From: a virus
Reading direction: 5' to 3' (one strand)
DNA: 55,105 nucleotides
UHGV virus genome: UHGV-0308106
Under the pieces are notes generated by a model that had not been told where the DNA came from, did not search any database, and saw only the letters and a list, made by a program, of their open reading frames with translations. Of this stretch, positions 27,130 through 47,163 are shown piece by piece (the first letter of the stretch is position 1; each line of letters opens with the position of its first letter). Position numbers and translations under genes: made by a program.

Positions 27130-27206
27130 ATGCCCAAAGCTAACCGGAATGCGTTTTTTTTTATTCAAATCATATATAATCATATCGAATATATACGGAG
27201 GTTTTT

Positions 27207-27918: not shown

Positions 27919-27922
27919 GGTA

Positions 27923-28204
27923 TTACCTCCTCAACAGGTTTATGTCAGCCTGAAAGCTGGCGATCAGGTTCTCAATGGTGGTGAATGTCACCGGATATTC
28001 CCGATCATGGATGTGTTTGTGGTCGCCTTTGCCACGTTCGTTGTCGTAACGCATGACGCACTCGCCATCTACGATGTAGGCCAGACTGTACTTGTATTGG
28101 TGCTGGCTACCTAAAATTGCCGGGTCTACTTCCAGAATGCGGATCGAGGCGAAAGCGTTATCAGCTATCTGGATACGGCGGTTCATCAACTCAACAGCGG
28201 GCAT
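27923..28204 (-). CDS. small protein (toxin-like partner, family not recognised)
   Basis: 93-aa ORF, AAGGAG SD, operator palindromes immediately upstream. Confidence 0.45.
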   Translation of the reverse strand: MPAVELMNRRIQIADNAFASIRILEVDPAILGSQHQYKYSLAYIVDGECVMRYDNERGKGDHKHIHDREYPVTFTTIENLIASFQADINLLRR

Positions 28205-28220
28205 TGGCTTATCTCCTTGT

Positions 28221-28270
28221 TGATGTAAATAATAACATCACAAACGAATGATGTAAATGATTACATCATT
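28221..28270. promoter_or_regulatory. inverted-repeat operators upstream of two-gene cassette
   Basis: tgatgt-aaataata-acatca (28221-28240) and aatgatgtaa-atga-ttacatcatt (28247-28270). Confidence 0.45.
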
Positions 28271-28412
28271 GCGGGTAAGTTACCGATGGCATGAACGGTT
28301 CGCTGCTGGTGGCTCTCGATCTCCTGAAAGCTCAGGATATTGCCGGGCATGATTTTAATCGGCGGACTTTTCGGCCGATTGAATACGGGCAGTTCGCTCC
28401 CTGTGTATCGGC

Positions 28413-28552
28413 TTCGTTTCTGGATGATTCGCGTTTCGTTTCTGGTGAATTCGCATTCGCAATTTGTCCGCGAAGCCTTATCAGGCCTGATTTGAGCGGT
28501 GCTCTCTCTTTGCGAATTCGCAGTTCCATTTCGCACTTTGATTCGCAGTTTT
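28413..28552. repeat. cluster of palindromic GAATTCGC/GATTCGC motifs
   Basis: Tandem 20-mers ttcgtttctggatgattcgc (28413-28432) and ttcgtttctggtgaattcgc (28435-28454); further gcgaattcgca and gattcgca copies to 28552; overlapping ORFs look non-coding. Confidence 0.4.
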
Positions 28553-28713
28553 CAAATGTTCCCATTCCGGGGACACGGACGATTAGACAGGTGTTACAAA
28601 CGTTGGTGGTGAAATATCTTCTTGCGCTGGCGGGCACGGTGTGGTTATGATTATTTCGCACCTCACAAAACGGGTGCCGGGCGTGAGAACCCGGATAAGG
28701 TCAAAGGCGACAA

Positions 28714-28737
28714 CAGACGCCTATCGCGTCTTTTTTT
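28714..28737 (+). terminator. intrinsic terminator in leader upstream of icd-like gene
   Basis: agacgc-ctatc-gcgtct stem followed by tttttttt. Confidence 0.4.
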
Positions 28738-28931
28738 TGTCGCAATGTCAGTACCCCCATATGTAGCGGCGCAGATCCGCGCACAGAATCAATGGTGGCT
28801 CTGGCAGGGCAGCTTTCGGGCTGGCCGGTTCCCTTTGACGCCGGTATTCTCACCCCTGTCAGTGTCACCACCCTTTAGAGCGTGAGAACTCAGGTGGTGG
28901 CTCCTTAAATTAGTCAAAGGAGATCATCATC

Positions 28932-29129
28932 ATGATGACTATCCCTACCCTCGCTCAAACAAAATTCACCTGGCGCTTTCTCGCGCTGAATCGCCACGAT
29001 AAAAAAGCCAAACCTTGCCGTCTGTCCGTTGAGGCTGCGACCGAACGCGAAGCCCGCCGCATCCTTGCGCCGCACTTTATTTTGTCTCTGGCCGCACGTC
29101 TGCCAGTGCCGGAGGTGCGTCATGTTTAA
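28932..29129 (+). CDS. Icd-like small protein (P4 family)
   Basis: 65-aa; KFTWRFLALNRHD...RLSVEAATEREARRILAPHFILSLAARLP resembles Icd/Ash proteins as recalled. Confidence 0.45.
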   Translation: MMTIPTLAQTKFTWRFLALNRHDKKAKPCRLSVEAATEREARRILAPHFILSLAARLPVPEVRHV

Positions 29130-30000
29130 CCTCCAGACACTGACAGCTAAAGCCCGTGAGCTGCGCGGCAACGTCGTTAAAGCGGCGAGCACAAAGGGAA
29201 GTCGCACCATGACTCCTGTCTATGACCGTGACGAGCAGCGCAAGCTACGCGAGCGCATCCAGCAGACACAGCCCGATTGGGTGTTGCTCTGGTGGGATAT
29301 TGCGACCGTAACCGGCTGGCGTACCAGCGACGTTTGCAACCTGCGCTATTCCTGCGTCAATTGGGAAACGGGGCAGGCGACAATTATCGTTGCCAAGCAG
29401 ACCAAAGCCGCCGAAGCGCGGGCAACCCGCAAAGGTATTGAAATTGTGCGCCAGCAGCGCAAGGACGCCGCGCGGCTCGCCGCTGACCATATCGCCTACA
29501 TGAAGTGGGATAGTATCGGTTGTGACGAACTGGCCGCCGATATGAACGACGAGGAACAGGCGATTGTGTTCGGGCTGGTGGCAAAGGCTGACGTCAAGCA
29601 CGACACCAAACAGTTACCGCCCGGCATTATCAAGCGGCTGCGTGACCGTCAGGATCGGAATCTGGTGGAGGACGACCTGGTATTTTCACGCTCTCAAATC
29701 GAAAGTAACCGTTGTCAACGTCTGGAAGGTAGCGTTACTCGCCAAACCATCTGGCGCAAACTTCATGGCGTCATGGCGTGGTTTACCCGTTTCATTAACG
29801 CTAAATTGCGCCTGAGCGCGTACTCAAGCCGAAAAATAGCAGCCTTTAATCTTATGTCCGCAGGTGGCGAACAGGGATTATTGGTGGCTTCTGAAATGCT
29901 GGGGCATAGCAACCCGGCGATAACTCGCACTTACCTTCAATTAGGCAGCAAAGCCGCCGCTATCCAGTCCCGTTTAGCAATGGAGGTGTGCCATGCGTAA
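29122..30000 (+). CDS. tyrosine recombinase-like protein (catalytic domain only)
   Basis: 292-aa from ATG 29122 (GGAGG SD); WDIATVTGWRTSDVCNL and C-terminal LGHSNPAITRTYLQ; no N-terminal core-binding domain. Confidence 0.55.
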   Translation: MFNLQTLTAKARELRGNVVKAASTKGSRTMTPVYDRDEQRKLRERIQQTQPDWVLLWWDIATVTGWRTSDVCNLRYSCVNWETGQATIIVAKQTKAAEARATRKGIEIVRQQRKDAARLAADHIAYMKWDSIGCDELAADMNDEEQAIVFGLVAKADVKHDTKQLPPGIIKRLRDRQDRNLVEDDLVFSRSQIESNRCQRLEGSVTRQTIWRKLHGVMAWFTRFINAKLRLSAYSSRKIAAFNLMSAGGEQGLLVASEMLGHSNPAITRTYLQLGSKAAAIQSRLAMEVCHA

Positions 30001-30172
30001 TCTCTTTCATATCACTGGCTACGCCGTCAATAAACGCGGCCTGACAGTCGGTTTTAGCTATCTCATCGACGCCGAGGACGCCATGCAGGCAAAAGTTAAT
30101 GCCATTGCTGAGGCGAAAGACGATGAACTCACCCACGTATCTATTGCCCGTATTCTGGAGGTGGCAGCATGA
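29993..30172 (+). CDS. hypothetical small protein
   Basis: 59-aa ORF not in track; GGAGG SD; coupled to neighbours. Confidence 0.35.
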   Translation: MRNLFHITGYAVNKRGLTVGFSYLIDAEDAMQAKVNAIAEAKDDELTHVSIARILEVAA

Positions 30173-30381
30173 GCAAAGTATCCCTGGCCGATTCAACCTG
30201 CCGTATCCAACAGGCGCAGGAAGTCCTGTCTCTCTGGCTTGAGGCGACGAATAAAAACGATAGCGGCACGGCTAAATTAATCGGCGCAATCATTTCCCTT
30301 CTGGATGGTATCCCCGAATTGATGGATTCAGTAGAGGATGAATTGGCTGGCATGGACTTAAAAGCGATGGATAAAGCATGA
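30169..30381 (+). CDS. hypothetical protein
   Basis: 70-aa ORF, ATGA coupling on both sides. Confidence 0.4.
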   Translation: MSKVSLADSTCRIQQAQEVLSLWLEATNKNDSGTAKLIGAIISLLDGIPELMDSVEDELAGMDLKAMDKA

Positions 30382-31004
30382 GCAACGTAGAGAAATTCAC
30401 ACCGGGAAATGCCGACTTATTACACGCCGAAGCCACACCGCACGGCGTAAACATCATGACCCGCAATGATGCCGGGATGTATGAGCATGTAGCCATTATC
30501 ACCTATGAGAGCGCTGTAAGCCGTCTGGATGCGGGAGAGTACGACGATACGCCAGATATCGGCTACGCCATTCATTTTGCCGTTGCTGATGGCGGGGCGC
30601 GTGGCTGGTTCGACTTTACCGCGCAGCATGAAGTAACCATGTGGCGCTGGCTGATTGCTGCGACGTTCGTTTCTGAGATGAAGCGCGAAAACGGCACAAC
30701 CTCCGTCACGGAGGCTGACGGCACAACATCGCAGGTGGCGATTTACTCCAATGGTAATGCGGGCATGGTGATTTACCCGTTTGCTGAACGGCTGGCGATG
30801 GCGAACAACATCGAGGGCGCAATGATTGAGCGATACGGCGTCGAACAGGGTACGGAAAAAGCCATTGTGTTTTATCAGGCCATGCTGGATACGGAGCGCG
30901 GCGAGCTTACCCCGTTCGGACGTGAAACGCTGGCAGAGCTACACGATCACTTCATTGCTGATCTGGATGAAAACGGCTGGCCTGAAATGCCAGCGGCGCA
31001 CTGA
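30378..31004 (+). CDS. hypothetical protein
   Basis: 208-aa ORF upstream of primase in same operon. Confidence 0.45.
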   Translation: MSNVEKFTPGNADLLHAEATPHGVNIMTRNDAGMYEHVAIITYESAVSRLDAGEYDDTPDIGYAIHFAVADGGARGWFDFTAQHEVTMWRWLIAATFVSEMKRENGTTSVTEADGTTSQVAIYSNGNAGMVIYPFAERLAMANNIEGAMIERYGVEQGTEKAIVFYQAMLDTERGELTPFGRETLAELHDHFIADLDENGWPEMPAAH

Positions 31005-31016
31005 GGGAGCGACACA

Positions 31017-33797
31017 ATGCGTAATATCGACCTTATCCGCGAAGTGACCAGCGCCGCAGCAGGGCGCTGGCCTTATGTGCTGGCTGGGTTGTCTATCGAC
31101 GTGCCTGATTCATCGCGCCGCCATTCTCCATGCCCTGCATGTGGTGGAAAAGACCGTTTCAGATTCGACGACAACGGGCGCGGTAGCTTTATCTGCAACC
31201 AGTGTGGCGCTGGTGACGGGCTGGATTTAATCAAGCGGGTTAACAACTGCGACACTACGGAGGCGGCACAGCTTGCCGCTGACGTGCTGGGTATTGATTA
31301 CCGGGCAGCGCAATCCGACCCGGTGGCAGCGAGCCATATAAGGGAGCAACTGGAAGCTGACCGCCAGCAGCGTGAGCAGGAGCGCCAGAAACAGGCAGCA
31401 GGGGACGCAGAGCAGCGAAGGGCTACGTTTGCCCGTCTGTATGCCGGAATGCGCCAGAGTGCCACACAGGGCGAATCTGATTACCTGCAATCAAAAGGGC
31501 TGACCGGGTTTAACTATCCGGTTATGCCTGATGGTTCGTTATTGCTGGAGCTGGTGGACGAATCCGGCGCAGTGGCAGCAGCGCAAACCATTACACCGCA
31601 GGGAGAGAAGCGACTCCTGACAGGTTCAGCAAAGCGCGGGGCATATCACGCCGTAAACGCGCCAGAATCGCCGCAGAGCGTTTTAATTGCCGAGGGGCTG
31701 GCGACGGCCCTTTCAGTTCACCTGATGCGCCCGGACGCGCTGGCAGTGGCAGCAATTGACGCGGGCAACCTGCTACCCGTTGCCGAAGTGATGCGCCGGA
31801 AGTACCCACAGGCACAAATCATCATTGCCGCAGATAACGACCAGATGGGCGAAAGTGACGGAATTAAAGGAGTGAAAGTTAACACTGGCAAGGAGGCCGC
31901 AGAGAAAGCCGCGAAAGCCGTTTCTGGCTGGGTTTCCATGCCACCAGTGGACTATAAAGCGGACTGGAACGACTACCACCAGCAATACGGCCTCGAAGCG
32001 GCCACAGCAGCATTTAACGACTCAATGTATCAACCGGAGGGTAAGAAAGTGGGTGCGACACTGACAGCTATCGACGGCGGCAAGAAAAAACTTGGTATCG
32101 ACGACGATCTGAAACCGCGAGTAGAGAGCCGTGCGGATGGCATTCACTGGATCACCCCGAAAGTGGACAAAGACACAGGAGAAATTATCAATACCGAGGC
32201 GTGGCTATGCTCTCCGCTGGAGATTGCTGGTGCGGGGAGTGATAACGCCAGACAGCGCTTTCTGATCCTGCGTTGGGACGTCCCCGGCAACCGGGGGCAA
32301 GTTACCCGTGCGCTTCCATGGGAGGACATTGGCGACCGTGAGGGATGGCGCACGCTGAAAAACGGCGGTGTCAGTGTGACAACCAAACCATCGTTGCGGG
32401 CAATTCTGGCCGACTGGCTGCAGCGAACTGGTAGCGGCAAGGAATGGCAGATCAGCCACACCACAGGCTGGCACAACGGGGCGTACATCATGCCGGATGG
32501 TGATGTTATTGGTGAGCCAGAGATACCGCTGTTATTCAGTGGTCGGAGTGCGGCGGCTGGTGGCTATACCGTCAGTGGAACGCCGGAAAGCTGGCGTGAT
32601 TCGGTGGCGCGTCTTGCGCTGGGAAACCCGTCAATGATGCTGGGCGTTGCTGCTGCGCTTTCTGCGCCGCTGATCGGGCTTGTTGGCGCTGACGGGTTCG
32701 GCGTGCATCTTTTCGAGCAGTCCAGCGCAGGGAAGACAACCACCGCCAACATTGCCAGCAGTTTATACGGTGAACCGGATGCCTTGCGCCTTACCTGGTA
32801 CGGTACAGCGCTGGGTATCGCCAACGAAGCGGAAGCGCATAACGACAGCCTGTTACCGCTGGATGAAGTGGGGCAGGGCAGTAGCGCCAAAGACGTTGCT
32901 ACGTCTGCTTACACGCTGTTTAACGGTGCCGGAAAGCTACAGGGGGCCAAGGAGGGCGGCAACCGTGAGTTAAAGCGCTGGCGCACCGTGGCGATCAGTA
33001 CCGGGGAAATGGACATTGAGACGTTTCTTTCTGCTGGTGGGCTGAAAGTTAAGGCCGGGCAACTGGTGCGATTGCTTAATTTACCGATGGAGAAATCAGT
33101 AACGCACCATGAGTACCAGAACGGGAAGCAACACGCCGACGCACTCAAAGAGGCTTACCAGACGAACCACGGAGCCGCAGGCCGTGAATGGATTAAATGG
33201 CTTGCAGGCCACCAGCAGGAGGCAAAACAAGCTGTCAGGGCGGCGCAAGAGCGCTGGCGCAGTCTTATCCCCGCTGATTATGGCGAACAGGTTCATCGTG
33301 TCGGTGAGCGGTTCGCCATTCTGGAGGCGGCGCTGGTGCTGGGGATGCCTGTCACTGGTTGGGGGGAGCAGGAAAGTCGGGACGCTATCCAGCATGGCTT
33401 TAATGCTTGGGTAAAAGAGTTTGGCACGGGGAACCGTGAGCATAAGCAGATCATCGAGCAGGCAGAGGCGTTTCTTAATGCCTACGGCATGAGCCGTTTC
33501 GCGCCGTTCCCGTATAGCCCGGCTGACATGCCGATCCGGGATTTAGCCGGATACCGTCAGAAAGGTGAGCATGACGAAAGCCCCGTAGTGTTCTACACCT
33601 TTCCGGCTGCGTTCGAAAAGGAGATAGCGCAGGGCTTTAATGCGAAACAGTTTGCCCGTGTGCTGGCCGGGGCTGGGGTACTGAAACCGCCAGCCAGCGG
33701 AAGGGGATATCAGCGTAAATCCCCGCGAATTGATGGACGCCAGATAAACGTTTATGTGCTCCAGCTACGACCCGACGAGATAGAGGGCGAAGAATAA
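31017..33797 (+). CDS. primase-helicase (P4 alpha-like)
   Basis: 926-aa; zinc ribbon CPACGG...CNQCG; TOPRIM-like AEGLATALSVH and IIAADNDQ; P-loop-like SSAGKTT. Confidence 0.9.
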   Translation: MRNIDLIREVTSAAAGRWPYVLAGLSIDVPDSSRRHSPCPACGGKDRFRFDDNGRGSFICNQCGAGDGLDLIKRVNNCDTTEAAQLAADVLGIDYRAAQSDPVAASHIREQLEADRQQREQERQKQAAGDAEQRRATFARLYAGMRQSATQGESDYLQSKGLTGFNYPVMPDGSLLLELVDESGAVAAAQTITPQGEKRLLTGSAKRGAYHAVNAPESPQSVLIAEGLATALSVHLMRPDALAVAAIDAGNLLPVAEVMRRKYPQAQIIIAADNDQMGESDGIKGVKVNTGKEAAEKAAKAVSGWVSMPPVDYKADWNDYHQQYGLEAATAAFNDSMYQPEGKKVGATLTAIDGGKKKLGIDDDLKPRVESRADGIHWITPKVDKDTGEIINTEAWLCSPLEIAGAGSDNARQRFLILRWDVPGNRGQVTRALPWEDIGDREGWRTLKNGGVSVTTKPSLRAILADWLQRTGSGKEWQISHTTGWHNGAYIMPDGDVIGEPEIPLLFSGRSAAAGGYTVSGTPESWRDSVARLALGNPSMMLGVAAALSAPLIGLVGADGFGVHLFEQSSAGKTTTANIASSLYGEPDALRLTWYGTALGIANEAEAHNDSLLPLDEVGQGSSAKDVATSAYTLFNGAGKLQGAKEGGNRELKRWRTVAISTGEMDIETFLSAGGLKVKAGQLVRLLNLPMEKSVTHHEYQNGKQHADALKEAYQTNHGAAGREWIKWLAGHQQEAKQAVRAAQERWRSLIPADYGEQVHRVGERFAILEAALVLGMPVTGWGEQESRDAIQHGFNAWVKEFGTGNREHKQIIEQAEAFLNAYGMSRFAPFPYSPADMPIRDLAGYRQKGEHDESPVVFYTFPAAFEKEIAQGFNAKQFARVLAGAGVLKPPASGRGYQRKSPRIDGRQINVYVLQLRPDEIEGEE

Positions 33798-33811
33798 AAC
33801 ACACATACGAG

Positions 33812-34104
33812 ATGTTTTTTTGTTGGTTCAGTTGGTTCAGTAACTATTTAATTAAGATAAGTATATGTATTTAATATATTTCTATACCCATAAGTGAACC
33901 AACACTGAACCAACAAATACCCATTTTGAACCAACAAATGCCGCTATTGAACCAACGCCCTTTTCTGGCTGGCCTGTAAATCTTTCCCACTGAACCAACA
34001 CGAAAATAGCGTTTGTTGGTTCAAAACAAGGCTTTGTTGGTTCACTCCTCAAGAAATAATCCTTACAAAACAACAATCTTTACAAATTGAACCAACTGAA
34101 CCAA
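33812..34104. repeat. iteron array / candidate origin of replication
   Basis: 12 copies of GAACCAAC in both orientations (e.g. 33812, 33821, 33886, 33897, 33918, 33939, 33982, 34005, 34026, 34079, 34088, 34097) flanking an AT-rich tract 33830-33880. Confidence 0.65.
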
Positions 34105-34397
34105 CTGAACCAACATGTTTTTGTTTATCTATAGAGTTTTTTCGGAGAGTAATTACGAATTTGGAGGGGCATCGCCTAAGCGACAGTATGCGGAAACGGC
34201 AACTTTGCGGAGCGGAAAAGAAAAAGCCCGCGCTGGAGAGGCGAGGGCTTTTGTTAACCATGTTTATGCAATCACACAATGGTGGATCACCGTCATAGTA
34301 CCACGTCGATTTATCATTTCAATGTACGCAATGATGTTTACTAATATTGCAATTTATGCAATGATCAGAATTTAAACAACGCAAAAGGTTATGAACA

Positions 34398-34961
34398 ATG
34401 AAACAGATAACCAATGTTAATCTGGAAAGTGATAACGCTGGTGGTACAGTCGAGGTGACTTACTCCGATGATACGTTCGAAAGGCTGACCTGTTCGCTGC
34501 CTGTGGCTCTCGTCATTGCGAACCTTGCAACGACGCTTAAGCAGGAACGTGCAACACGCATTGCAACCGGCGACCGCCTGCGCCGGATGTATACCCGCGA
34601 TAGTGACATGATTACCCGCAGCGGCAGCGGCGCTTCTACGACCTCCACCGCGCCAACGTCAATGGACGCTGAATTTATGCGCCTGGTACGCGCTGTAGCA
34701 CCAAAGTATGACAACGCCCTTCCTGATACCGATCCTCGCCTTGTTGCGCTTGATGTGCTGCGTTACGCACCCGCTGAGGCATTCAGTGCGGTACACCCGA
34801 CCCCGCTATCAGAGATTCAGCTTGATCAGGCTATCGACGTTCTGGAACAGGTTGGCGACTACATGCGAGTTAACAACGTTTCACCGAAGATTCTCACCAC
34901 AGGCGACGCCATTCGCAGCATTAACACCGACAACGCCAGTTTCTGGCATCGCACGAAGTAA
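34398..34961 (+). CDS. hypothetical protein with scaffold-like C-terminal motif
   Basis: 187-aa; C-terminus TTGDAIRSINTDNASFWHRTK resembles helper 24387-25619 C-terminus. Confidence 0.5.
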   Translation: MKQITNVNLESDNAGGTVEVTYSDDTFERLTCSLPVALVIANLATTLKQERATRIATGDRLRRMYTRDSDMITRSGSGASTTSTAPTSMDAEFMRLVRAVAPKYDNALPDTDPRLVALDVLRYAPAEAFSAVHPTPLSEIQLDQAIDVLEQVGDYMRVNNVSPKILTTGDAIRSINTDNASFWHRTK

Positions 34962-34967
34962 GGAGCA

Positions 34968-35162
34968 ATGAGCATGGCTATTTATGACCCGAAATTAGCA
35001 GCAGGAAACCCGCAAAGCGCCGGGCGTAAACTCTTTGGCCGTGAACAGGCCGAGCAATTGCGGATGCGTAACAACTTCAACAACGAATGCCGCAATCTGG
35101 AAAAAGTCAACGAAGCGAATGCAAAGTTCTGGAGTGAACAGGATGAAAAAGCCAAACGTTAA
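34968..35162 (+). CDS. hypothetical small protein
   Basis: 64-aa; contains NAKFW near C-terminus. Confidence 0.4.
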   Translation: MSMAIYDPKLAAGNPQSAGRKLFGREQAEQLRMRNNFNNECRNLEKVNEANAKFWSEQDEKAKR

Positions 35163-35310
35163 GCCGGTATTACTCTCTGGCGACCAGTTCGCCGCAATCT
35201 GCAAGATCCAGGAGCGCGAACGCCAGCGCTCCGATATTGGCGTAGCGCCGTCTGTCCATCAAATTGCCCGTGGGCTGGTGGCGAAAGCGCTGGCATCAAT
35301 TCAGGAATAA
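35143..35310 (+). CDS. hypothetical small protein
   Basis: 55-aa from ATG 35143 with GGAG SD. Confidence 0.3.
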   Translation: MKKPNVKPVLLSGDQFAAICKIQERERQRSDIGVAPSVHQIARGLVAKALASIQE

Positions 35311-35315
35311 CGACT

Positions 35316-36383
35316 ATGTCATATAACTGGATGCGCCATTTCGAGCTACAGCTCATCGATGAGAATGGCAAAGGAATTAGCCTTAGTGATTTCAAAGTTA
35401 CCTTTGATATAGAGCGTAACGATAACAAATGGCCAGCTGTTGCGACGGTCAAGATCTACAACCTTTCACCAACTACTCAGAACCGTATTATGCAACGTGA
35501 GTTTGCCAAAATTGTGTTGATAGCGGGGTATGATGGTCGTGCGCAGGATGTAAGGGCAAGTGATGTGGGGATTGCACGTGAAATATCAGCAAGCGAAGTG
35601 GGCCAGGCTAACGGCGCAAACTACGGAGTCATTTTCAGCGGTGATATCCGCTTCACTGTGACCGGAAAAGATAACCCTGTCGATTCATGGGTACAGGTGC
35701 AGGCTTGTGACTCTGTGGAGGCGTTTACCAGCGCATTTATCAACACCACTATCAGCAAAGGCTACACCACAGAAGATATTTATGTTGAGCTTATGAAAAG
35801 GCTGGAACCTTACGGCATTTCTCGCGGTATTGTTCCTGAATTCCCGGCAACGGTATTTCCTCGCGGTCGAGCCCTCTTTGGCTATGTCCATAACTATCTC
35901 GATGAAGTGGCCGCGCAGTGCAAAGCCACTTGGCAATTCAACTATGGAAAAGTCGATATTGTTCCCAGAGACAAGGCCACTCATGAAGCTGTGGTTCTCA
36001 ACGCTAATACCGGGCTTATCGGTATGCCTCAGCAGACCATCGGTGCGGGTGTGAATGTCAAATGCCTGATTAACTCACGGATTCACCTGAACGGGCTTAT
36101 CCAACTGGATCAGGCTTCGGTATATCGTAGCGCCTTATCTGCGGATCAAATTGCCCAAGCTGGTGGGCCAATTTCGGTGGAAAGCCAAAACGGAAACCTT
36201 GTCACTACTGGATTAACGCAGAGTCCGGCGAGCATTGCTACCGATGGTATCTATAAGGTTCGGTATATCAGTTACACGGGCGACACGCGCGGTCAAGCGT
36301 GGTATATGGATCTGGCGTGTGAGGCTCGCGGGAATTCTGATTTATTTTCAAGTTCATTTATGAATAAGCAGAGTGAAGAATGA
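35316..36383 (+). CDS. baseplate hub-like protein (paralog of 47472-48536)
   Basis: 355-aa; about 70 percent identical by eye to helper hub-like protein (MSYNWMRHFELQLID vs MSLNWMRHFELQLLD). Confidence 0.5.
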   Translation: MSYNWMRHFELQLIDENGKGISLSDFKVTFDIERNDNKWPAVATVKIYNLSPTTQNRIMQREFAKIVLIAGYDGRAQDVRASDVGIAREISASEVGQANGANYGVIFSGDIRFTVTGKDNPVDSWVQVQACDSVEAFTSAFINTTISKGYTTEDIYVELMKRLEPYGISRGIVPEFPATVFPRGRALFGYVHNYLDEVAAQCKATWQFNYGKVDIVPRDKATHEAVVLNANTGLIGMPQQTIGAGVNVKCLINSRIHLNGLIQLDQASVYRSALSADQIAQAGGPISVESQNGNLVTTGLTQSPASIATDGIYKVRYISYTGDTRGQAWYMDLACEARGNSDLFSSSFMNKQSEE

Positions 36384-36724
36384 AGAAGATTATTTTACTG
36401 ATTGGTTTATTGGGCGCATCTGGAAGTCATGCTGCGCAGGTTATTACCATGCAGTGCGGAAACTTTCGCTTTGAGATGATAGAAAACTCGATGGCGAGAA
36501 TTAATGGTGAGTATGTAACATCTCAGAAAATTACAGAGTTCGGACAGAACGGGGCAAAAGTAGAAATGACGCTTATGCCTGCCAGCGATGGGAATCTGTA
36601 TGGGTTTGAATACATCCATCCTGACGGTAGCAAAAAGCGCTGGCTGAATGTTGAGCTTATCCGCACCAATATGAATCAGGCGCGGATCATTGGCTCGTTT
36701 GATTGTAAGCGCGTGAAGGGGTAA
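36380..36724 (+). CDS. secreted small protein (paralog of 48549-48893)
   Basis: 114-aa; signal peptide MKKIILLIGLLGASGSHA; two Cys; shared C-terminal DCRKVK. Confidence 0.5.
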   Translation: MKKIILLIGLLGASGSHAAQVITMQCGNFRFEMIENSMARINGEYVTSQKITEFGQNGAKVEMTLMPASDGNLYGFEYIHPDGSKKRWLNVELIRTNMNQARIIGSFDCKRVKG

Positions 36725-36732
36725 GGGGAATC

Positions 36733-37395
36733 ATGCCATTCATTCGACCCGCAAATGAGCAGGATGTAACACAGCTTGTTCAGGACAATGCTAAAGCATC
36801 TGTAACCAATGCGTTACCTGGCATTATTCGTTCGTTCGATCCCGAAACTGTCACCTGCGATGTTGATATAGCCATTACGGCAAGAATGACGAAGGCTGGC
36901 ACAATGGGTGAAGATTTCCAGTATGAGTCCGTCCGCTATCCGATTCTTAACGATTTGCCTGTGGTTTTTCCGCGCGGGGGCGGAGTTACGCTTACTTTCC
37001 CGGTTAAAGATGGTGATGAATGCCTCATCGTATTCTCTTCGCGTTCGATTGATTTCTGGTGGCAGAACGGCGGTGTGCAGGAGCGAGCTGATGGGCGTAT
37101 TTTAGATCTGTCTGATGCGTTCGTTATTCCTGGCCCCCAATCACAGGTAAAGAAGATATCCAATATCAGTACCAACGCTGCGCAGCTGCGTACAGATGAT
37201 GGAGCGGCATTTGTAGAGGTGTCCGCTGGTGGAGCCATTACTATTACCAGCTCTCAAATCACCCTTAACGGGCCCGTGCAGGTAAACGGAACGATCACTT
37301 CCACTGGCGACCAAACGGCCAACGGTATCAGCCAGATTAACCATACCCACGGCGGCGTACAATCAGGCGGCAGCAACACAGGAAAACCACAATGA
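36733..37395 (+). CDS. baseplate spike protein gpV-like (paralog of 49430-50170)
   Basis: 220-aa; PGIIRSFDPETVTC, FPRGGG, C-terminal HTHGGVQSGG; about 65 percent identical to helper gpV. Confidence 0.7.
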   Translation: MPFIRPANEQDVTQLVQDNAKASVTNALPGIIRSFDPETVTCDVDIAITARMTKAGTMGEDFQYESVRYPILNDLPVVFPRGGGVTLTFPVKDGDECLIVFSSRSIDFWWQNGGVQERADGRILDLSDAFVIPGPQSQVKKISNISTNAAQLRTDDGAAFVEVSAGGAITITSSQITLNGPVQVNGTITSTGDQTANGISQINHTHGGVQSGGSNTGKPQ

Positions 37396-37571
37396 GCAAT
37401 ATTGAAAAACTGAAACCAGAAGAAAGCGGATCCAGCCAGAATGGTAAGGTTCGTACCTGGCTGGATGATATCAACGGGCAGCCGGAACCAGATGGTATTG
37501 GCAGCTTCGGTGAGAGTGCGATCTGCGAAGAATCACGCACAGCGGAAACCATGCGAAATAACGTAGGGTGA
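37392..37571 (+). CDS. hypothetical small protein
   Basis: 59-aa ORF, ATGA overlap with gpV-like stop. Confidence 0.3.
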   Translation: MSNIEKLKPEESGSSQNGKVRTWLDDINGQPEPDGIGSFGESAICEESRTAETMRNNVG

Positions 37572-37599
37572 CGGTCAGATGACGTGATCTGTAACTTTA

Positions 37600-37647
37600 A
37601 GTAGCGGTGCAGGGGCAGAACTCAGCACGCTACTTTTATTTTCTTTG
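37600..37647 (+). terminator. intrinsic terminator upstream of orphan small-terminase paralog
   Basis: agtagcggtgc...gcacgctact stem with one bulge, followed by tttattttctttg. Confidence 0.5.
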
Positions 37648-37661
37648 TCAAAAGGTGAACA

Positions 37662-38135
37662 ATGGCGGCATTACCAACAATGGCTAAGGTTATGATTATT
37701 CAATCATTAGCTTGCTACGAACCCCCTTCCAGAATCGTTGAGCTTGTAAAACAAGATTTTGGCATCGTCGTTACCCGGCAGCAGATATCGGCCTACAACC
37801 CTGAAAATACAATGGCAAAAAATCTTAGCCAAAAATGGGTAGAACTCTTTAATCACACTCGCGCCCGCTTCCAGAGTGAAATATCCGAGATCCCTATCGC
37901 TAACAAAGCGTACCGGCTGCGTATGCTCGATCGCATGGCTAACCGTGCAGAGGCAATCAAGAATTACGCATTAACAGCGCAGCTTATTGAACAGGCCGCG
38001 AAAGAGTGCGGGGACGCTTACACCAACAAATTAAAGGTTGAAACAACGGGTAAAGATGGTGGTCCGATCAGAACGGAAACAACGAACTTAACCGCCGAAG
38101 AAGCCGGGGAGGCATACCGCAAATTTATGGGATAA
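37662..38135 (+). CDS. small terminase paralog (orphan)
   Basis: 157-aa; same length as 19876-20349 product, C-terminal half nearly identical; no large terminase or portal follows. Confidence 0.5.
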   Translation: MAALPTMAKVMIIQSLACYEPPSRIVELVKQDFGIVVTRQQISAYNPENTMAKNLSQKWVELFNHTRARFQSEISEIPIANKAYRLRMLDRMANRAEAIKNYALTAQLIEQAAKECGDAYTNKLKVETTGKDGGPIRTETTNLTAEEAGEAYRKFMG

Positions 38136-38366
38136 CCACCAGCGCCGTGACACGTCACACGCAAAAATAGCACCGCCCATTAATGGGCTGGTGGCACAGC
38201 TTGCATATTGAAATTCCCTGTAAATCTTACAGATCTGGTATTGAGTAACTTACCCCATTCAGCGCCATACATCACAGAGCAGCCTATGGACTACACACAA
38301 AATCAGGCTGCAAATAAATCCTTATATTTCAGTTGATTAAATAATAGCCTTGCATTCCTGTACCGG

Positions 38367-38849
38367 ATGCCTGTTGGCATTGCCGGGGCTATCTCTCGCC
38401 CGCAGGACTTAACCGTCGAACCGGTGATCCTTAAATCCGCTAACGCCTTCGCTGCCTATGGTCTGGCTGGCAAATATGACGCTGACGGCTTTTTCGTGCC
38501 GCTGGCGGACGGTGACACCGCCGACAAGGTGAAGGGGATCTACGTTCGTCCGTATCCGACCACATCGCAGCCAGACATGGTTCGCCAGGTGGGGACGGAT
38601 AAGAACTTCCCGGGTGACGCCATGAAGCGTGGCTACATGACCGTTAATCTCGGTTCTGATTTTGATGCCAGCACCATCAAAAAAGGCGACCCGGTATACG
38701 TTGTCGTCTCCACTGATGAATCCATAAAAGTGCCGCTGGGCGGCTTCATGTCCACGTCCGTCAGTGGCAAAAACGTGGCGCTGACCAACGCCGAATTCAC
38801 AGGGGCCGGTGACGCTAACGGCAATGTAGAAATCTCCTGGAAGATTTAA
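38367..38849 (+). CDS. head protein (decoration or scaffold-like), hypothetical
   Basis: 160-aa ORF directly upstream of major capsid gene. Confidence 0.4.
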   Translation: MPVGIAGAISRPQDLTVEPVILKSANAFAAYGLAGKYDADGFFVPLADGDTADKVKGIYVRPYPTTSQPDMVRQVGTDKNFPGDAMKRGYMTVNLGSDFDASTIKKGDPVYVVVSTDESIKVPLGGFMSTSVSGKNVALTNAEFTGAGDANGNVEISWKI

Positions 38850-38860
38850 GGAACAGACAA

Positions 38861-39802
38861 ATGATTACTTTTGATCAGGCAACCGTAGATAGCTCCGGTG
38901 CCTTTCTCATCGGGGAGCTGGAGCGACTCGACCAGACGCTGAACCTGCCTCTGGTGGGGTACACCTGGACCCGAGATATTCAACTGCGTGAAGACGTGTC
39001 TATCGCAGATGACATTTCCAGCTGGACGAATACCAGCTTCGCCGCTGCGGGTACTGGTGCAAATCCGAATGGTAAAAACTGGGTAGGCAAAGACTCCACC
39101 GCTATTGCTGGCGTGAACGTGGATATCAGCAAAGACGGCAATCCACTGAACCTCTGGGGTATGGAACTGGGCTGGACCGTTGTAGAGCTGGCAGCTGCTC
39201 AGCAGGTAGGCCGCCCGATTGATACCCAGAAGTACGACGGGATGCAGCTCAAATGGCAGATGGACAACGACGAGCAGGTTTACATCGGTGATGACGCACT
39301 CGGCCTGAAAGGTCTGGCAAACCTCGTCGGTGTGACGCTGAACAACGCGCCGAAGACCTGGGCGAACTCAACCAACGACGAGATCCTCGATAGCGTGAAC
39401 AGCATTCTGTCTAATGCCTGGGCAGCATCCGGTTATTCCATCGTGCCTTCTGATCTGCGCATTCCGCCAGAGCAGTATTCACTGCTGGCGAGCCGTAAGG
39501 TTTCCGAAGCGGGTAACCAGTCACTGCTGACCTATCTGGCTGTGAACACTATCGCTTTCCACCAGAACGGCGTTCCGCTTGAAATCAAAGCGGTCAAATG
39601 GCTGAAAGGGCGTGGGGTTGGCGGTAAAGACCGTATGATCGCCTACACCAACGACAAGAAATACGTGCGCTATCCGCTGGTGCCGTTGCAGAGCGTTCCT
39701 GTCCAGTATCGCGGTCTGTATCAGATTGCGACCTACTACGGCAAGCTCGGTGCGGTTGAGCCAGTGTACAAAGAAACCCTGTCCTACGTGGACGGTATCT
39801 GA
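38861..39802 (+). CDS. major capsid protein
   Basis: 313-aa ORF in head module; size, position and composition typical of coat proteins. Confidence 0.55.
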   Translation: MITFDQATVDSSGAFLIGELERLDQTLNLPLVGYTWTRDIQLREDVSIADDISSWTNTSFAAAGTGANPNGKNWVGKDSTAIAGVNVDISKDGNPLNLWGMELGWTVVELAAAQQVGRPIDTQKYDGMQLKWQMDNDEQVYIGDDALGLKGLANLVGVTLNNAPKTWANSTNDEILDSVNSILSNAWAASGYSIVPSDLRIPPEQYSLLASRKVSEAGNQSLLTYLAVNTIAFHQNGVPLEIKAVKWLKGRGVGGKDRMIAYTNDKKYVRYPLVPLQSVPVQYRGLYQIATYYGKLGAVEPVYKETLSYVDGI

Positions 39803-39843
39803 TAACCAGAACGGCCCCGAAAGGGGCCAGAAGGGAACTGAAA

Positions 39844-40233
39844 ATGGCGAAAGAAAAGCTGGTTACCATCCATGTTCACACCCCGTTTACGCTGACGCTC
39901 GGCGATCAGTCAAAAAGGGAGTTTGGCCGGGGACGGCATAACGTACCGGAAGAGGTCGCGTCGCACTGGTTCACCCAGGCGCACTCCGAGCTTTCCGAAA
40001 GCGTGATTAGCGACACCGATGATCTGCAACCCATTATCGACAGCCTGCAAGCTCAGATTGCCGACAAAGATAAGCAGATTATCGATAAAGATCAGTTGAT
40101 TGCCGATCTGCGAGAAGCGCTGCTCAAGCTGCAAGAGCAGAACGACAGCCTGCAAGCGCAGATTGCTGCCGCCCAGACTGGCGGTAATGGGGCGAAAGAT
40201 GCCAAAGAATCAAAGCCTGCCAACAGTAAGTGA
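39844..40233 (+). CDS. hypothetical head-associated coiled-coil protein
   Basis: 129-aa; heptad-like [44 protein letters not shown]. Confidence 0.4.
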
Positions 40234-40606
40234 TTTTCGGCGCGACTTTCCACAGTTTGCTGACCCTGCCAAATATCCCGAAGCACAAATCCAGTTTCGT
40301 CTGAATCTGGCTGATGTGCTGCTGAGCGAAAACGTCACCGGCAAAGAGTTGTTTCCGTACTTTGTCGAGTTGTTCGTGGCTCACTACATGACGCTCTGGG
40401 CGGCAGATAGCCGGGCAATGCTCGTCGGCGGCCCGGGTGGCTCAACCAATGGTGTTCAGTCCTCCAAGTCCGTTGACAAGGTAAGCGTCAGCTATGACAC
40501 CAGCGCGACGCTAAACCCTGACGCAGGCTTCTGGAATAACACCCGATATGGCGCTGAATTTTATCAGCTGATCACGATGTTCGGTGCGGGCGGTCGCCAG
40601 CTATGA
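40199..40606 (+). CDS. head-tail connector/completion-like protein
   Basis: About 135-aa from ATG 40199 overlapping upstream gene end. Confidence 0.4.
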
Positions 40607-41157
40607 GTTTCAAAAGTGGTGTAACAACGAGGGTTGATAACGCTCAGGCCATTCTGGATGCGCTCCGGTCGCTAACCAAAAAGGATGTGCTGGTGGGCAT
40701 CCCGGAAGAAGACAGCGAGCGTGAGGATGTTCCGTTTGGTAATGCCGGGATCGGTTACGTCAACGAATACGGCTCACCAGCGCAAAACATACCCCCACGC
40801 CCGCACCTGATCCCCGGCGTTAAATCCGTAGAGGAACAGACGGTGCCGCAGCTCAAAGCAGCGGCGCAGGCTGCGCTTGATGGAAATGCGGCGGGTGCGG
40901 AAAGAGCGCTTAACCGCGCCGGAACGCTGGCCGCGAATGGTGTCAGGCGTTACATGACCATTACCGGCTTTACACCGCTTGCTGATAGCACCGTTGAAGC
41001 ACGCGCACGCCGTGGGCGCAAAGGGGCAAAAGAGGAACTTGCGCGGCGCGCTGCTGGTGAGTCTCCTGGAACCGATCTGGTGAAACCGCTAATCGACACC
41101 GGGCAATATCGCAGAGCTATTACCCATATTGTGAGGGATAAAGATGCCGACTCTTGA
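40603..41157 (+). CDS. virion morphogenesis protein, hypothetical
   Basis: 184-aa, ATGA-coupled. Confidence 0.4.
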
Positions 41158-41533
41158 TGTAACAGACGTGCTTTTTGACCCCGATTTTTGCGACTTCAAC
41201 CTGTGGGTAACGCGTCGCGCGCAAACGGTGGACGATGACGGGATCGGCAGCGACAGCGAAGTTAAAACGCAGTTTGCCGGGGTTGTTACTGTTGACCGCT
41301 CCCTGGAAAACCGCCGCATGCAGGCCGGGCAGGTTATCAGCGGCGCGATTCTCATCGTGACAACTGAGCGGCTGACGCAGGGGCAGACTGGCCGTGATGC
41401 CGATATCGTGACGTATCAGAACCGTGATTATCGCGTGACATTCGTCGACCCGTATACGGCTTACGGTGCTGGCTTCGTCCAGGCTCATTGTGAATTACTG
41501 CCGTTTGATGGGGGAACTCCCATTGAGCAATAA
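41144..41533 (+). CDS. head-tail joining protein, hypothetical
   Basis: 129-aa, overlaps upstream gene. Confidence 0.4.
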   Translation: MPTLDVTDVLFDPDFCDFNLWVTRRAQTVDDDGIGSDSEVKTQFAGVVTVDRSLENRRMQAGQVISGAILIVTTERLTQGQTGRDADIVTYQNRDYRVTFVDPYTAYGAGFVQAHCELLPFDGGTPIEQ

Positions 41534-42071
41534 CACCAGCACAGAGCGCGGCTGGCTGATACCAACCAGTGGCGATCCGGATTATGACGAAGCGCTCGAC
41601 AGGCTGCTAAGCCAGTGGATGCGCAATGTTTCCGGCTTGCCGTCTGGAATGGTTCGTCCGCGCTGGCAGAAAAATCAGCCGCCACAGCCACCCGTTGAAA
41701 CGAACTGGTGCGCGTTTGGCGTTACCGGGTTGCTCATTGATAACAACCCTGCATTCACCAATCAGACCGACGAGGGCGCTCAGCTCTGGCGGCATGAAAC
41801 GTTCGAGTGCATGGCGTCGTTCTATGGCCCGGCTGGTATGTCTTATGCGTCCCGTTTTCGCGATGGCATATCTGTCCCGCAAAACAATGCTGAGCTGAAC
41901 GCGCTTGGTTTGTCTCTGGGCGACTATACCGGTCTGACCCCTTTCCCCGAACTTATCAACCAGCAATGGGTTCGCCGCTACGACATGACGGTGCGCCTGC
42001 GCCGGAAGGTCGTGCGCGAGTACGGCATTAAATCGCTGGTGGAAGCGCCAGTCACCTTTTTTGGAGAATAA
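41508..42071 (+). CDS. tail completion protein, hypothetical
   Basis: About 187-aa from ATG 41508; immediately upstream of sheath gene. Confidence 0.4.
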   Translation: MGELPLSNNTSTERGWLIPTSGDPDYDEALDRLLSQWMRNVSGLPSGMVRPRWQKNQPPQPPVETNWCAFGVTGLLIDNNPAFTNQTDEGAQLWRHETFECMASFYGPAGMSYASRFRDGISVPQNNAELNALGLSLGDYTGLTPFPELINQQWVRRYDMTVRLRRKVVREYGIKSLVEAPVTFFGE

Positions 42072-42074
42072 ACT

Positions 42075-43235
42075 ATGACGCAGGGCTTACCTGTATCCAA
42101 CGTTGTAAACGTTGATGTGATCATCTCGCCGAAAGCGGCTACTGGTCGTAACTTCGGCGCGCTGCTGATCCTCGGTTCTTCCACTGTCATTCCGGTGCAG
42201 GAGCGCGTTCGCCTTTATGCGTCTGTTGAGGACATTGGCGAGGACTTCGGAGTCGACAGCCCGGAATATGAAGCGGCGCAGGTTTTCTTCAGCCAGTCGC
42301 CGAAGCCGACGCAGGTTTATGTTGGCCGCTGGGCGAAGACGCTGACCTCTTCCGAAGGTGGAAGCGTGGAAACCATCGTGCAAGCTGTTAATGCCTGCCT
42401 GCAGTATACCAACTGGTATGGGCTGGTTGTCGCTGATGATGTTGCTGATGGCGATGATGTGCTTGATGCTGACGACGTGATTGAGGTTGCTAAACTCATC
42501 GAAGCGTCCAGCCTGAGCCGCATTTTCGGGGTAACGTCAGCCGACGCTGAGATCATCAGCACGACTTCGACGACCGATGTTGCGTCTAAATTAAAGGCCG
42601 GTAAGTATACCCGTACCTTTATTCAATATTCCACCAGCAGCCCTTATGCGGCGGTTTCAGCTTTCGGTCGCGCGTTTACTGTCAATTTCAACGGCAGCAA
42701 TACTACCATTACCCTGAAATTCAAACAGGAACCGAGCGTAACCTACGAAACGCTGACGGTAGGACAGGCGGCGGCTGTGGATGCGAAGAATGCGAACGTG
42801 TTCGTGTACTACGCCAACGACACGGCGATCCTGCAACAGGGTGTCATGGCGAACGGTGACTTCTTCGACGAGCGCCACGGGCTCGACTGGTTGCAGAACT
42901 ACGTTCAGACCAACCTCTATAACCTGCTTTACACCAGCACCACCAAAATTCCGCAGACTGATGCCGGTGTGACCCGTCTGCTTTCCAACGTTGAACAGTC
43001 CATGGATCAGTCCGTCACGAATGGTCTGGTAGCGGCTGGCGTGTGGAATGGTGGCCCTATCGGACAGCTGAATTCCGGCGATACGCTGACCAAAGGCTAT
43101 TACGTGTATGCGCAACCGCTGTCCGAACAGGCGCAGGCCGACCGCGAAGCGCGCAAAGCACCGTTAATCCAGGTGGCCTGTAAGCTGGCTGGCGCAGTTC
43201 ATTATGCCGATGTGCAGATCAACGTGGTTCGCTAA
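42075..43235 (+). CDS. tail sheath protein
   Basis: 386-aa ORF preceding tube and chaperone genes. Confidence 0.65.
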
Positions 43236-43245
43236 GGAGCGATAA

Positions 43246-43686
43246 ATGGCAACTTATTCTTTTCTCGATGTAACCGCGTCGCTCACCGGGCCGACCGGAG
43301 TTATCGATCTTGGTCAGGGTTCTGCGAACTCTGAGGAAGGTATCACCCAGACTATGGGCGGCAACAAGAACACCATGACCATCGGTGCCGATGGCGAAGT
43401 GATGCACAGCCTGCACGCCGATAAGTCAGGCACCATTACGGTGACGCTGCTGAAAACCTCCCCGGTGAACAAGAAGCTGTCTCTGGCGTATAACGCGCAA
43501 AGCCAGTCCTCTGCCACCTGGGGAAATAACGTGATCGTCATTCGCAACACGGCATCGGGTGATATTTCTACTGCGCGTTCGTGTGCATTCCAGAAACAGC
43601 CTGATTTCAATAACGCCAAAGAGGGCGGAACCGTAGCCTGGGTATTCGATTGCGGCAAGATTGACCAGCTGCTCGGGGAGTTTTAA
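43246..43686 (+). CDS. tail tube protein
   Basis: 146-aa ORF between sheath and chaperone. Confidence 0.6.
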   Translation: MATYSFLDVTASLTGPTGVIDLGQGSANSEEGITQTMGGNKNTMTIGADGEVMHSLHADKSGTITVTLLKTSPVNKKLSLAYNAQSQSSATWGNNVIVIRNTASGDISTARSCAFQKQPDFNNAKEGGTVAWVFDCGKIDQLLGEF

Positions 43687-43689
43687 CGC

Positions 43690-44115
43690 ATGGAATTCGA
43701 AATTAAAGGCGTGAAATATCGCACCGCAAAGCTCAGCGTTTTCGAACAGCTGAAGGTGTCCCGAAAGCTGTTGCCGGTGCTGGCCGGGATGGTTTCTGAC
43801 TTCCGGAGCGTTCAGGAGAAGATCAGCAGCAAAGACACCGAAGGCGCGATGGCTACCATCCTGCCAAAGATTGCCAATGCTGTGTCCGATCTGAGCGATG
43901 GCGACGTTGACGCTATCCTGTTCCCCTGCCTTTCCGTTGTTTCACGCGAGCACATGAAAGGCTGGGTGCCGGTCTGCCAGCATGGCGAAATGGCGTTTGA
44001 CGATATCGACCTGCTGACCATGCTGCAACTGGTGGCGCGGGTGGTCGCCGACTCGCTGGGAAATTTTTTGCAAGGACTCCCTACCAGCGAGACGCCCACC
44101 CCGCCAGCGGAATAA
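43690..44115 (+). CDS. tail assembly chaperone (with probable -1 frameshift extension to about 44298)
   Basis: 141-aa ORF before tape measure; slippery-type aaattttttg at 44061-44070; -1 frame stays open to TAA at 44296-44298. Confidence 0.5.
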   Translation: MEFEIKGVKYRTAKLSVFEQLKVSRKLLPVLAGMVSDFRSVQEKISSKDTEGAMATILPKIANAVSDLSDGDVDAILFPCLSVVSREHMKGWVPVCQHGEMAFDDIDLLTMLQLVARVVADSLGNFLQGLPTSETPTPPAE

Positions 44116-44292
44116 CCTTCAACAGCCTGCCGGGCGGTGAAGACTTTATTCTTCGTCCGGCGCTTGCCTTCCATATTGACCAGAAAGACCTTAACAGCGG
44201 TGCGGTAGACCTCTGCCGTATCGCGCTTCTCAATGACTACCTCGACATGCGCGAGGATAACGACGCCCGGGTAGATAAATGGAGAGCGGCCA

Positions 44293-47162: not shown

Positions 47163-47163
47163 T

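Follow-up and report, generated by a model that had tools for sequence, protein, structure and literature searches.

UHGV virus genome UHGV-0308106, a stretch of 55,105 nucleotides that we refer to as the window, carries two sets of genes for the centre of a phage tail tip. One set lies in an element nested within a prophage and comprises a baseplate hub gene (35316–36383, + strand), a gene for a secreted 114-residue β-barrel protein, here called X (36380–36724, +), whose start overlaps the hub stop codon, and a central spike gene of the Gp138/gpV type (36733–37395, +). The second set belongs to the surrounding prophage, with its hub at 47472–48536, X at 48549–48893 and spike at 49430–50170, all on the + strand. 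An initial annotation of the window had suggested that the first trio mirrors the second in gene order, and pairwise comparison confirms their paralogy far beyond chance.

A satellite nested in a helper prophage

The nested element is an insert of 12.7 kb (25644–38350) lying between imperfect 14-bp repeats. The insertion point is a 26-bp spacer that separates the DUF2213 head gene of the surrounding prophage from its cement gene. Both flanking genes are intact and, the site being intergenic, the insert does not break into a late gene without replacing it, the pattern described for helper-embedded phage-inducible chromosomal islands (PICIs). Citrobacter phage Omnitron (41.9 kb) is co-linear with the window on both sides of the insert (19171–25642, 99%; 38351–55000, 95%) and is without the intervening 12.7 kb, thereby providing an empty site. 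This site reads TAA-TCCAATGAC-TGCATATCTGTACC-GG-ATG (also written TAATCCAATGAC-TGCATATCTGTACC-GGATG). The initial proposal of a nested element is borne out by this co-linearity and by the empty site.

Comparison of the window with the empty Omnitron site and with junctions in other prophages places the attL core, TGCATATCTGTACC, at 25630–25643, and comparison of junctions places the attR core, TGCATTCCTGTACC, at 38351–38364 (neither core is assigned a strand). The junctions are identical in five other occupied prophages (loci L001 and L003–L006 of our survey). The pattern of the repeats fits a probable crossover of 7 bp, CTGTACC, and the predicted junction in the satellite attP is …AGCCTTGCATTCCTGTACC|TTATGCAAC…. 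Within the insert the gene order is integrase, AlpA, a TumE toxin–antitoxin pair, isrK/C4 RNAs, primase and late genes, and the core genes are all on the + strand, co-oriented with the late operon of the prophage. Judged by its sequence, 25644–38350 is a phage satellite of PICI/P4-like type, lodged in a helper prophage that is complete, and the best explanation of its position is that the satellite's own integrase placed it in the DUF2213/cement spacer.

The helper, a contractile-tailed temperate myovirus, is related to Salmonella phage SEN34 of the genus Brunovirus. The hub of the window has a 100% identical counterpart on IMG/VR contig UViG_3300045988_080056 (55,303 bp), presumably the origin of the window. 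It is complete, with integrase, RecET, CI, O/P, Q antiterminator, lysis genes, terminase, portal and head genes. Its tail set runs to sheath, tube, an SLT-domain tape measure, a Dit-like protein, plug, hub, X, spike, wedges and fibres.

Paralogous tail-tip genes of satellite and helper

The satellite and helper hubs (355 and 354 amino acids) share 63% amino-acid identity (E 3e-166), the X proteins 31% (E 2e-16) and the spikes (220 and 246 amino acids) 51% over the BLAST alignment (E 1e-72). Over aligned columns, nucleotide identity is 62% for the hub, 54% for X and 68% for the spike. The figure of 65–70% in the initial annotation therefore comes close for hub and spike and was too high for the middle gene. 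The satellite hub matches phrog_196 'baseplate hub' (5e-82), the Pam3 hub gp19 (1e-10) and, in the PDB, also phi92 gp137. The satellite spike contains the N-terminal domain PF18352 (Pfam, 1e-37) and the Apex domain PF18946 (1.2e-7), and its PDB matches are the spikes of E217, phi92 and Pam3. In the helper, X belongs to phrog_3443 and matches satellite X by BLAST, and the spike is recognized both by BLAST to the satellite spike and by Pfam.

The hub, X and spike reading frames of the satellite are intact, with overlapping stop and start codons, and the apex motif of the spike is kept. That the satellite spike is 26 residues shorter, as initially noted, is correct. The difference arises from two deletions in the β-helix, partly offset by a 10-residue insertion near residue 55. 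Because the solved spikes of E217 and Pam3 are also about 220 residues long, the satellite protein is a natural short form of the spike and not a decayed one. In the hub, 142 of the 355 positions are conserved in both of the clades described below. A further 15 are conserved within clades and differ between them, 10 of which fall at residues 148–221, and these may form a lineage-specific surface.

A fourth paralogous pair, absent from the initial annotation, is formed by DUF2280 genes at 37662–38135 in the satellite (+ strand; Pfam DUF2280, 3e-39) and at 19876–20349 in the helper (+ strand; 99% identical to the Omnitron copy), which share 64% identity. The helper gene lies directly upstream of the TerL gene, a slot that is the usual position of the terminase small subunit (TerS), and the satellite copy is a putative TerS. 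In sibling satellites the DUF2280 protein is conserved at 96–98%, including those (ET791 and EC2001) whose resident prophage encodes another type of terminase.

Ancestry and selection

A scan of genome contigs with the 187-amino-acid late-operon protein of the satellite as marker found 3 loci only; our survey rests on hub homologues with look-ups of their genomic context and on IMG/VR. In a neighbour-joining tree of 134 hubs the satellite hub and the helper hub fall into separate clades, one of satellites and one of phages (100/100 bootstrap). All 13 satellite-clade members with genome contexts lie in satellites, recognized by a primase together with integrase and/or AlpA; some of these satellites are chromosomal and others are embedded in late genes. 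All 7 such members of the phage clade lie in phage tail operons. The IMG/VR loci divide in the same way. None of the 28 satellite-clade loci has sheath or tube genes upstream and 22 have a primase upstream, whereas all 29 phage-clade loci have phage-operon markers and none has a primase. These markers are sheath/tube genes upstream and/or W/J genes downstream, except in L075, a 5.8-kb fragment with only a tape measure and Dit. Pooling the two sources, 41/41 satellite-clade members lie outside phage operons, 35 of them beside a satellite primase, and 36/36 phage-clade members lie in tail operons.

In a smaller tree of copies with known context (9–10 satellite and 5–8 phage copies), X and spike also separate satellite from phage. 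Satellite copies of Dit and plug are not monophyletic in this tree, and satellite-specific ancestry extends only to hub, X and spike. In 50,697 phage records no hub exceeds 62% identity to the satellite hub. In a comparison with 5,426 E. coli genomes, it is other satellites that give the closest DNA matches (79% and 72%), and every prophage copy is at or below 66%.

Six IMG/VR loci of the satellite clade (L037–L041 and L045) have no recognized primase upstream, and none is a phage tail operon. Three of these (L041, 1–21053; L038; L039) hold a tape measure–Dit–hub–X–spike set with a satellite-clade hub and no primase within 10 kb upstream; in L041 a thioredoxin-like gene lies upstream of the tail-tip set and a Fic-domain gene downstream.

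Among satellite copies the ratio of non-synonymous to synonymous substitution (dN/dS) is 0.06–0.11 for the hub, 0.04–0.07 for X, 0.06–0.12 for the spike and 0.015–0.05 for DUF2280. Between satellite and helper, synonymous substitutions have reached saturation in hub, X and DUF2280 and come close to it in the spike (dS 2.75). The low dN/dS, the saturation and the separate clade together indicate that capture of the cassette is old and that its genes are kept under purifying selection within the satellite lineage. The initial argument that such divergence speaks against a recent duplication is upheld by these data, and the alignment and phylogeny of both copies that it called for assign the satellite hubs a clade of their own.

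A tail-tip cassette that moves among satellites

Siblings in complete E. coli genomes, which occupy the same prophage site, hold other cargo in the slot occupied here by hub, X and spike. ABWA45 and ET791 have a small metallopeptidase-like gene there, ECONIH5 has two unknown genes and an IS5, and EC2001 has a longer tail-tip set (Dit-like, plug, hub, X and spike). The slot proteins of L001 (18895–19614), L005 (16678–17397) and L004 (16309–17431) give a weak match to the zinc-peptidase motif region of Peptidase_M41/M50B. Backbone homology between the window and its siblings (93–99% at the nucleotide level) ends at 35300 and restarts at 37578. Between these points, the block 35312–37483 is 89.7% identical to Enterobacter satellites in which the integrase is only 64% identical and the primase is of a different type. 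Because the block is so similar in satellites with such unlike integrases and primases, the hub–X–spike unit together with the 59-codon open reading frame that follows it (about 35312–37483) is, on this comparison, a swappable cassette moving between satellite backbones. The 59-codon frame (37392–37571, +), which travels with the cassette, is 97% identical in L002, and frames of 54–58 codons stand at the same position in L009–L014; scans of PHROG and further families found no match for it.

In the databases, the hubs nearest to that of the satellite (95% and 88% identity) come from Enterobacter, Klebsiella and Raoultella satellites of the same layout, which are inserted inside the Baseplate_J gene or the major capsid gene of their helpers. 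In L009–L014 and L025 the gene that is split is either Baseplate_J, close to the 5′ end, or that of the PF09950 major capsid protein, around codon 133. Integrases of relatives at these other late genes are 56–64% identical to that of the window, and integrases at the three late-region sites of the family show the same range of identity to one another. Since these integrases are related and their elements split Baseplate_J or the PF09950 capsid gene, the satellite lineage targets at least three late-region sites of SEN34-like phages.

Other relatives lie further afield. An E. coli G5 element with hub, X, spike and DUF2280 sits at tRNA-Thr, outside any prophage, and more distant satellites occur in Citrobacter, Klebsiella pneumoniae, Rahnella, Pectobacterium, Pantoea and Serratia, mostly at chromosomal sites. 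Several of these distant relatives also carry Dit, plug or an SLT-domain tape measure. One hub cluster from Klebsiella pneumoniae is indexed in 455 blocks of the assembly collection. In the helper-embedded L006 (10922–15961, Apirhabdus apintestini) the hub matches in two overlapping pieces and about 2 kb of extra sequence lies between X and spike; this cassette looks to be in decay or to carry an insertion.

The secreted protein X

X has a signal-peptide-like N terminus and two cysteines, all of which are conserved. Its AlphaFold2 model (pLDDT 88.5) contains seven strands by DSSP and forms a small up-and-down β-barrel. Sequence searches against solved virion proteins found no match, and fold comparison gave no informative one. 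X is most likely a periplasmic protein and not part of the virion. It is kept in every satellite cassette examined (about 40), and the slot between hub and spike is variable in phages: SEN34 has X and one further gene there, a Serratia prophage has unrelated genes, and the helper in the window has X and a reverse-oriented DUF4236 gene flanked by hairpins. The helper segment between X and spike (48894–49429) is a low-G+C (41%) insert, and the satellite slot is compact. The DUF4236 gene (48917–49207, minus strand) encodes 96 residues with a hydrophobic C terminus. One of its flanking hairpins is on the minus strand (48911–48893), and the other is a strong terminator-like hairpin on the plus strand (49395–49414), just before the spike gene.

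We also considered co-evolution of X with the spike. Identities are discordant (spike 90% and X 60% in E. coli G5; X 75% and spike 64% in EC2001) and give no simple lock-and-key signal.

Proposed function of the satellite tail-tip genes

We consider it reasonably probable that the cassette, which is of satellite ancestry, provides the centrepiece of hybrid tails otherwise built by the helper. On induction, Q-antiterminated late transcription of the helper would read through into the co-oriented satellite, which would excise and replicate with its own primase. The TerS paralogue of the satellite would then steer the helper terminase to satellite DNA, and its trimeric hub and spike would seed baseplate assembly. 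The resulting tail would have a satellite centrepiece set within the Dit-like protein, plug, tape measure, wedges, tube, sheath and fibres of the helper. In contractile tails of the T4 and P2 types it is the hub–spike complex that seeds baseplate assembly, and a satellite supplying both of these trimeric proteins could set which tip is given to the tails of that cell. Parts in working order, docking onto the Dit, plug and wedges of the helper, would fit the hub positions shared by the two clades, the kept apex and purifying selection across the whole proteins. The benefit is most likely a changed penetration of the cell envelope, or escape from something that blocks helper-type tips.

Several points weigh against hybrid tails. 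Siblings with 93–99% identical backbones carry other cargo, which makes the cassette dispensable for the backbone. It is thus optional, not needed for maintenance of the satellite and probably not for its transfer. Tails join heads regardless of their contents, and so a satellite tip would also appear on helper virions. A promoter scan found no sigma-70 signal for the satellite late operon above shuffled background. The satellite DUF2280 protein is probably the terminase small subunit, by gene position only. Finally, the trees that define the satellite clade are distance-based and rooted at the midpoint, and the protein hits behind them were ranked by similarity to the satellite hub.

Among alternative readings, interference with the helper survives best, although we judge it unlikely. 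The satellite hub and spike would join helper subunits in the tail or compete with them for helper partners and so poison helper tails, serving as a device against the helper or against phages. Inhibition of the helper is common among satellites, and blocking of tail assembly is a known defence, exemplified by Tab (PMC10884400) and by Rta of the Vibrio cholerae PICI-like elements, or PLEs (PMC12987554). The optional nature of the cassette, as is often seen with defence cargo, and the clustering of clade-differing hub positions at 148–221 are in keeping with this. However, the satellite needs tails for its own transfer, and purifying selection extends over the full length of the proteins. It takes in the apex that pierces the membrane, a part for which a poison subunit would have no use. 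Moreover, the module in relatives extends to Dit, plug and tape measure, and so has the makeup of a working tail-tip assembly line.

A role in exclusion is likewise unlikely. Hub, X and spike would form a matched entry-and-exclusion set, in which X is a periplasmic factor that blocks incoming tails with a particular type of hub or spike, much as Spackle of T4 blocks gp5. As a long shot, an orthogonal cassette might let satellite particles enter cells that exclude helper-type tips, with the satellite's own X barring rival satellites. Such a cassette would matter chiefly to helper-embedded satellites, for which the attachment site is present only inside helper lysogens. Exclusion would explain the signal peptide and conserved cysteine pair of X, its divergence (31% identity), far faster than that of hub (63%) or spike (51%), and its presence in every satellite cassette while phages sometimes replace it in the slot. 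It would also explain the swapping of the cassette among satellite backbones.

That the cassette holds backup copies, captured because the embedded satellite disturbs the late operon of its helper by polarity or disruption, is very unlikely. Captured late genes have been proposed to back up interrupted helper genes in helper-embedded PICIs (PMC10111431), and the satellite does separate the head genes of the helper from its downstream capsid and tail genes. Yet the interrupted genes are not hub or spike, either here or at the Baseplate_J and major-capsid sites, the same cassette occurs in chromosomal satellites without embedding, and 51–63% identity to the resident helper is not like-for-like replacement.

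The least probable reading, a decayed second prophage junction (which the initial annotation had named as its refuting case) or a recent segmental duplication of helper genes, takes its appeal from a second co-ordered tail-gene set of the kind seen in tandem or decayed prophages and from the disrupted hub of L006, and it is refuted by precise att junctions and the empty Omnitron site, by the satellite backbone and the same module in chromosomal satellites such as that at tRNA-Thr, by synonymous sites at or near saturation, by the separate clades and by the database matches, all of them distant phage hubs or other satellites.

Other genes of the satellite and the helper

The tyrosine integrase of the satellite (25834–27063, +) is of the P4 type with an arm-binding domain (Pfam Arm-DNA-bind_3, 1e-23; Phage_integrase, 8e-23) and is followed by a terminator-like hairpin (27105–27123, +; an 8-bp stem and then a T-run, by consensus match only). 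An AlpA-like regulator or excisionase follows (27207–27419, +). Its Pfam Phage_AlpA match (4e-4) is just below the gathering score, and a protein 100% identical to it in L003 and L005 has the RefSeq label 'AlpA family'. The toxin–antitoxin pair (27559–28204, minus strand) consists of a TumE toxin (27923–28204; Pfam TumE, 7.5e-16) and an HVO_A0114-type partner (27559–27918; 1e-18). It is opposite in orientation to all other satellite genes and missing from the siblings ABWA45 and EC2001.

The P4-type immunity RNA region (28658–28875, +) contains isrK (28658–28736) and C4 (28788–28875), both above the Rfam gathering thresholds (61.3 bits against 50 and 78.8 bits against 45, respectively). It lies within about 800 bp that are otherwise non-coding, at a place occupied in siblings by an Icd-like gene and an unknown gene of 1071 bp. 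A second tyrosine-recombinase-like gene (29122–30000, +; Pfam Phage_integrase, 1.5e-10) can be called from 29029, and its relatives start at the equivalent of 29122. It is found just upstream of the DUF4222 and primase genes and stays 89–99% identical from one satellite to another even when the main integrase, the type of primase and the insertion site change. Next come a 208-residue protein of unassigned function (30378–31004, +; phrog_1515) and a primase–helicase with zinc ribbon, Toprim and DUF927 domains (31017–33797, +; Pfam DUF927, 7e-46; Zn_Ribbon_Prim, 1e-15; Toprim_3, 8e-14).

The tightly packed late operon (34398–38135) ends in hub, X, spike, the 59-codon frame and DUF2280. It starts with family-conserved proteins of 187, 64 and 55 residues (34398–35310, +), none of which matches Pfam or PHROG. 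Their homologues precede the cargo slot in L001–L008 and in many IMG/VR satellites. In promoter and terminator scans of the satellite and the helper hub–spike region, promoter-like sites were fewer than in shuffled sequence.

In the fibre region of the helper (52382–55105), the opposite strand (53441–54504) encodes a further fibre tip, which has a Collar domain, and a further gene for fibre assembly. An open reading frame then runs off the end of the window. A matching phage record annotates a DNA invertase in the region, which looks like an invertible host-range segment.

Comparison with known satellites

With P4 and Gram-negative PICIs the element shares a P4-type integrase, AlpA, a primase of the P4 alpha/DUF927 kind and C4/isrK immunity RNA. 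At 12.7 kb against about 42 kb it has some 30% of the size of the helper genome, which is the usual satellite-to-helper ratio. Its integrase, AlpA, primase and packaging gene (DUF2280, by position only), a length within about 10–15 kb and the lack of a complete complement of phage structural or lysis genes agree with the make-up of Gram-negative PICIs, and the paralogue in TerS position is a likeness to pac-type PICIs. The P4 genes Psu, Sid, Delta and Ogr had no Pfam or PHROG match in any satellite reading frame scanned, and none of the papers searched reports tail-tip genes in P4-like satellites or Gram-negative PICIs. Capsid-forming PICIs produce capsids of their own and use the complete tails of the helper. 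Like these, the window element would contribute some virion parts itself and rely on its helper for the others. It is, however, their reverse, with its own tail centrepiece, and we found no capsid, portal, protease or head–tail connector genes in 25644–38350.

The initial annotation had envisaged a new kind of helper exploitation, a claim overtaken by two precedents, helper-embedded PICIs with late genes in 2023 and the chimeric tails of PLEs in 2026. Helper-embedded PICIs with captured late genes were described by Tommasini, Mageeney and Williams in 2023, who proposed Q-antiterminated read-through from the helper into the satellite (PMC10111431). The window satellite resembles them in its place inside the late region of a helper prophage, whose orientation it shares, and in the order of its zones, namely integrase and AlpA, C4/isrK immunity, primase and a dynamic late zone with captured late genes. 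It is also similar in that related integrases target several late-gene sites, with occasional relatives at chromosomal ones. Bro-N domains were not found in the window; Bro-N or AntA genes occur in relatives L026–L028. They also differ. The described elements sit in cognates of late genes of lambda, a siphovirus (14 sites; PMC10111431), whereas the helper here is a contractile-tailed SEN34-like phage, and the words 'baseplate', 'spike' and 'myo' have zero occurrences in the main text of that paper. The site in the window is intergenic, and only relatives split Baseplate_J or the PF09950 capsid gene. Finally, the late cargo is a hub–X–spike set in a satellite clade of its own, which does not look freshly captured. 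The window element extends helper-embedded satellites from lambda-like siphoviruses to contractile-tailed phages.

In open-access and bioRxiv literature we found no description of enterobacterial satellites with hub and spike genes, and the only paper found on satellites with baseplate, hub or spike genes is that on PLEs (PMC12987554). The hub–X–spike set is the hallmark of a widespread and apparently undescribed family of enterobacterial satellites, which probably builds hybrid tails. Its satellite-specific hub clade offers a clean marker for finding such elements, the genes of which prophage and virome annotation currently labels phage tail genes or hypothetical proteins. If hybrid tails are made, they would represent a strategy widespread in Enterobacterales (Escherichia, Klebsiella, Enterobacter, Citrobacter, Serratia, Pantoea, Pectobacterium and Rahnella), by which satellites, in replacing the very part that pierces the cell envelope, could tune penetration or escape exclusion independently of the receptor-binding fibres of the helper.

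A close parallel is PLE11 of Vibrio cholerae, which contributes a tape measure and a hub of its own to chimeric tails, as demonstrated by mass spectrometry and genetics (PMC12987554, Nature 2026). Its tail genes are TMP, TAC and BhuB, the hub being 41% identical to that of ICP1 (PMC12987554). Here too the satellite encodes a diverged baseplate hub (63% identity), and relatives of the window element also encode a tape measure. Diverged homologues of helper tail-core proteins, which characterize chimeric-tail satellites of the PLE type, are thus present as hub and spike in the window and as Dit, plug and SLT-domain tape measure in relatives. The systems differ in that PLE, which resides at a chromosomal site, parasitizes a lytic phage and has no spike gene or secreted partner. 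Its tail genes are, moreover, tied to evasion of the element's own inhibitor, Rta, whereas no such inhibitor was identified here. By analogy, PLE11 offers a model for the benefit, in which satellite tail parts would escape a satellite-encoded inhibitor of helper parts. Hybrid tails have been shown for PLE11 and are inferred from sequence for the enterobacterial elements. PLEs were called the first satellite family known to build chimeric tails (PMC12987554), and the enterobacterial family would hence be another, of independent standing. Should particles prove to contain the satellite hub and spike, the assembly of hybrid tails would not be peculiar to the PLEs of Vibrio.

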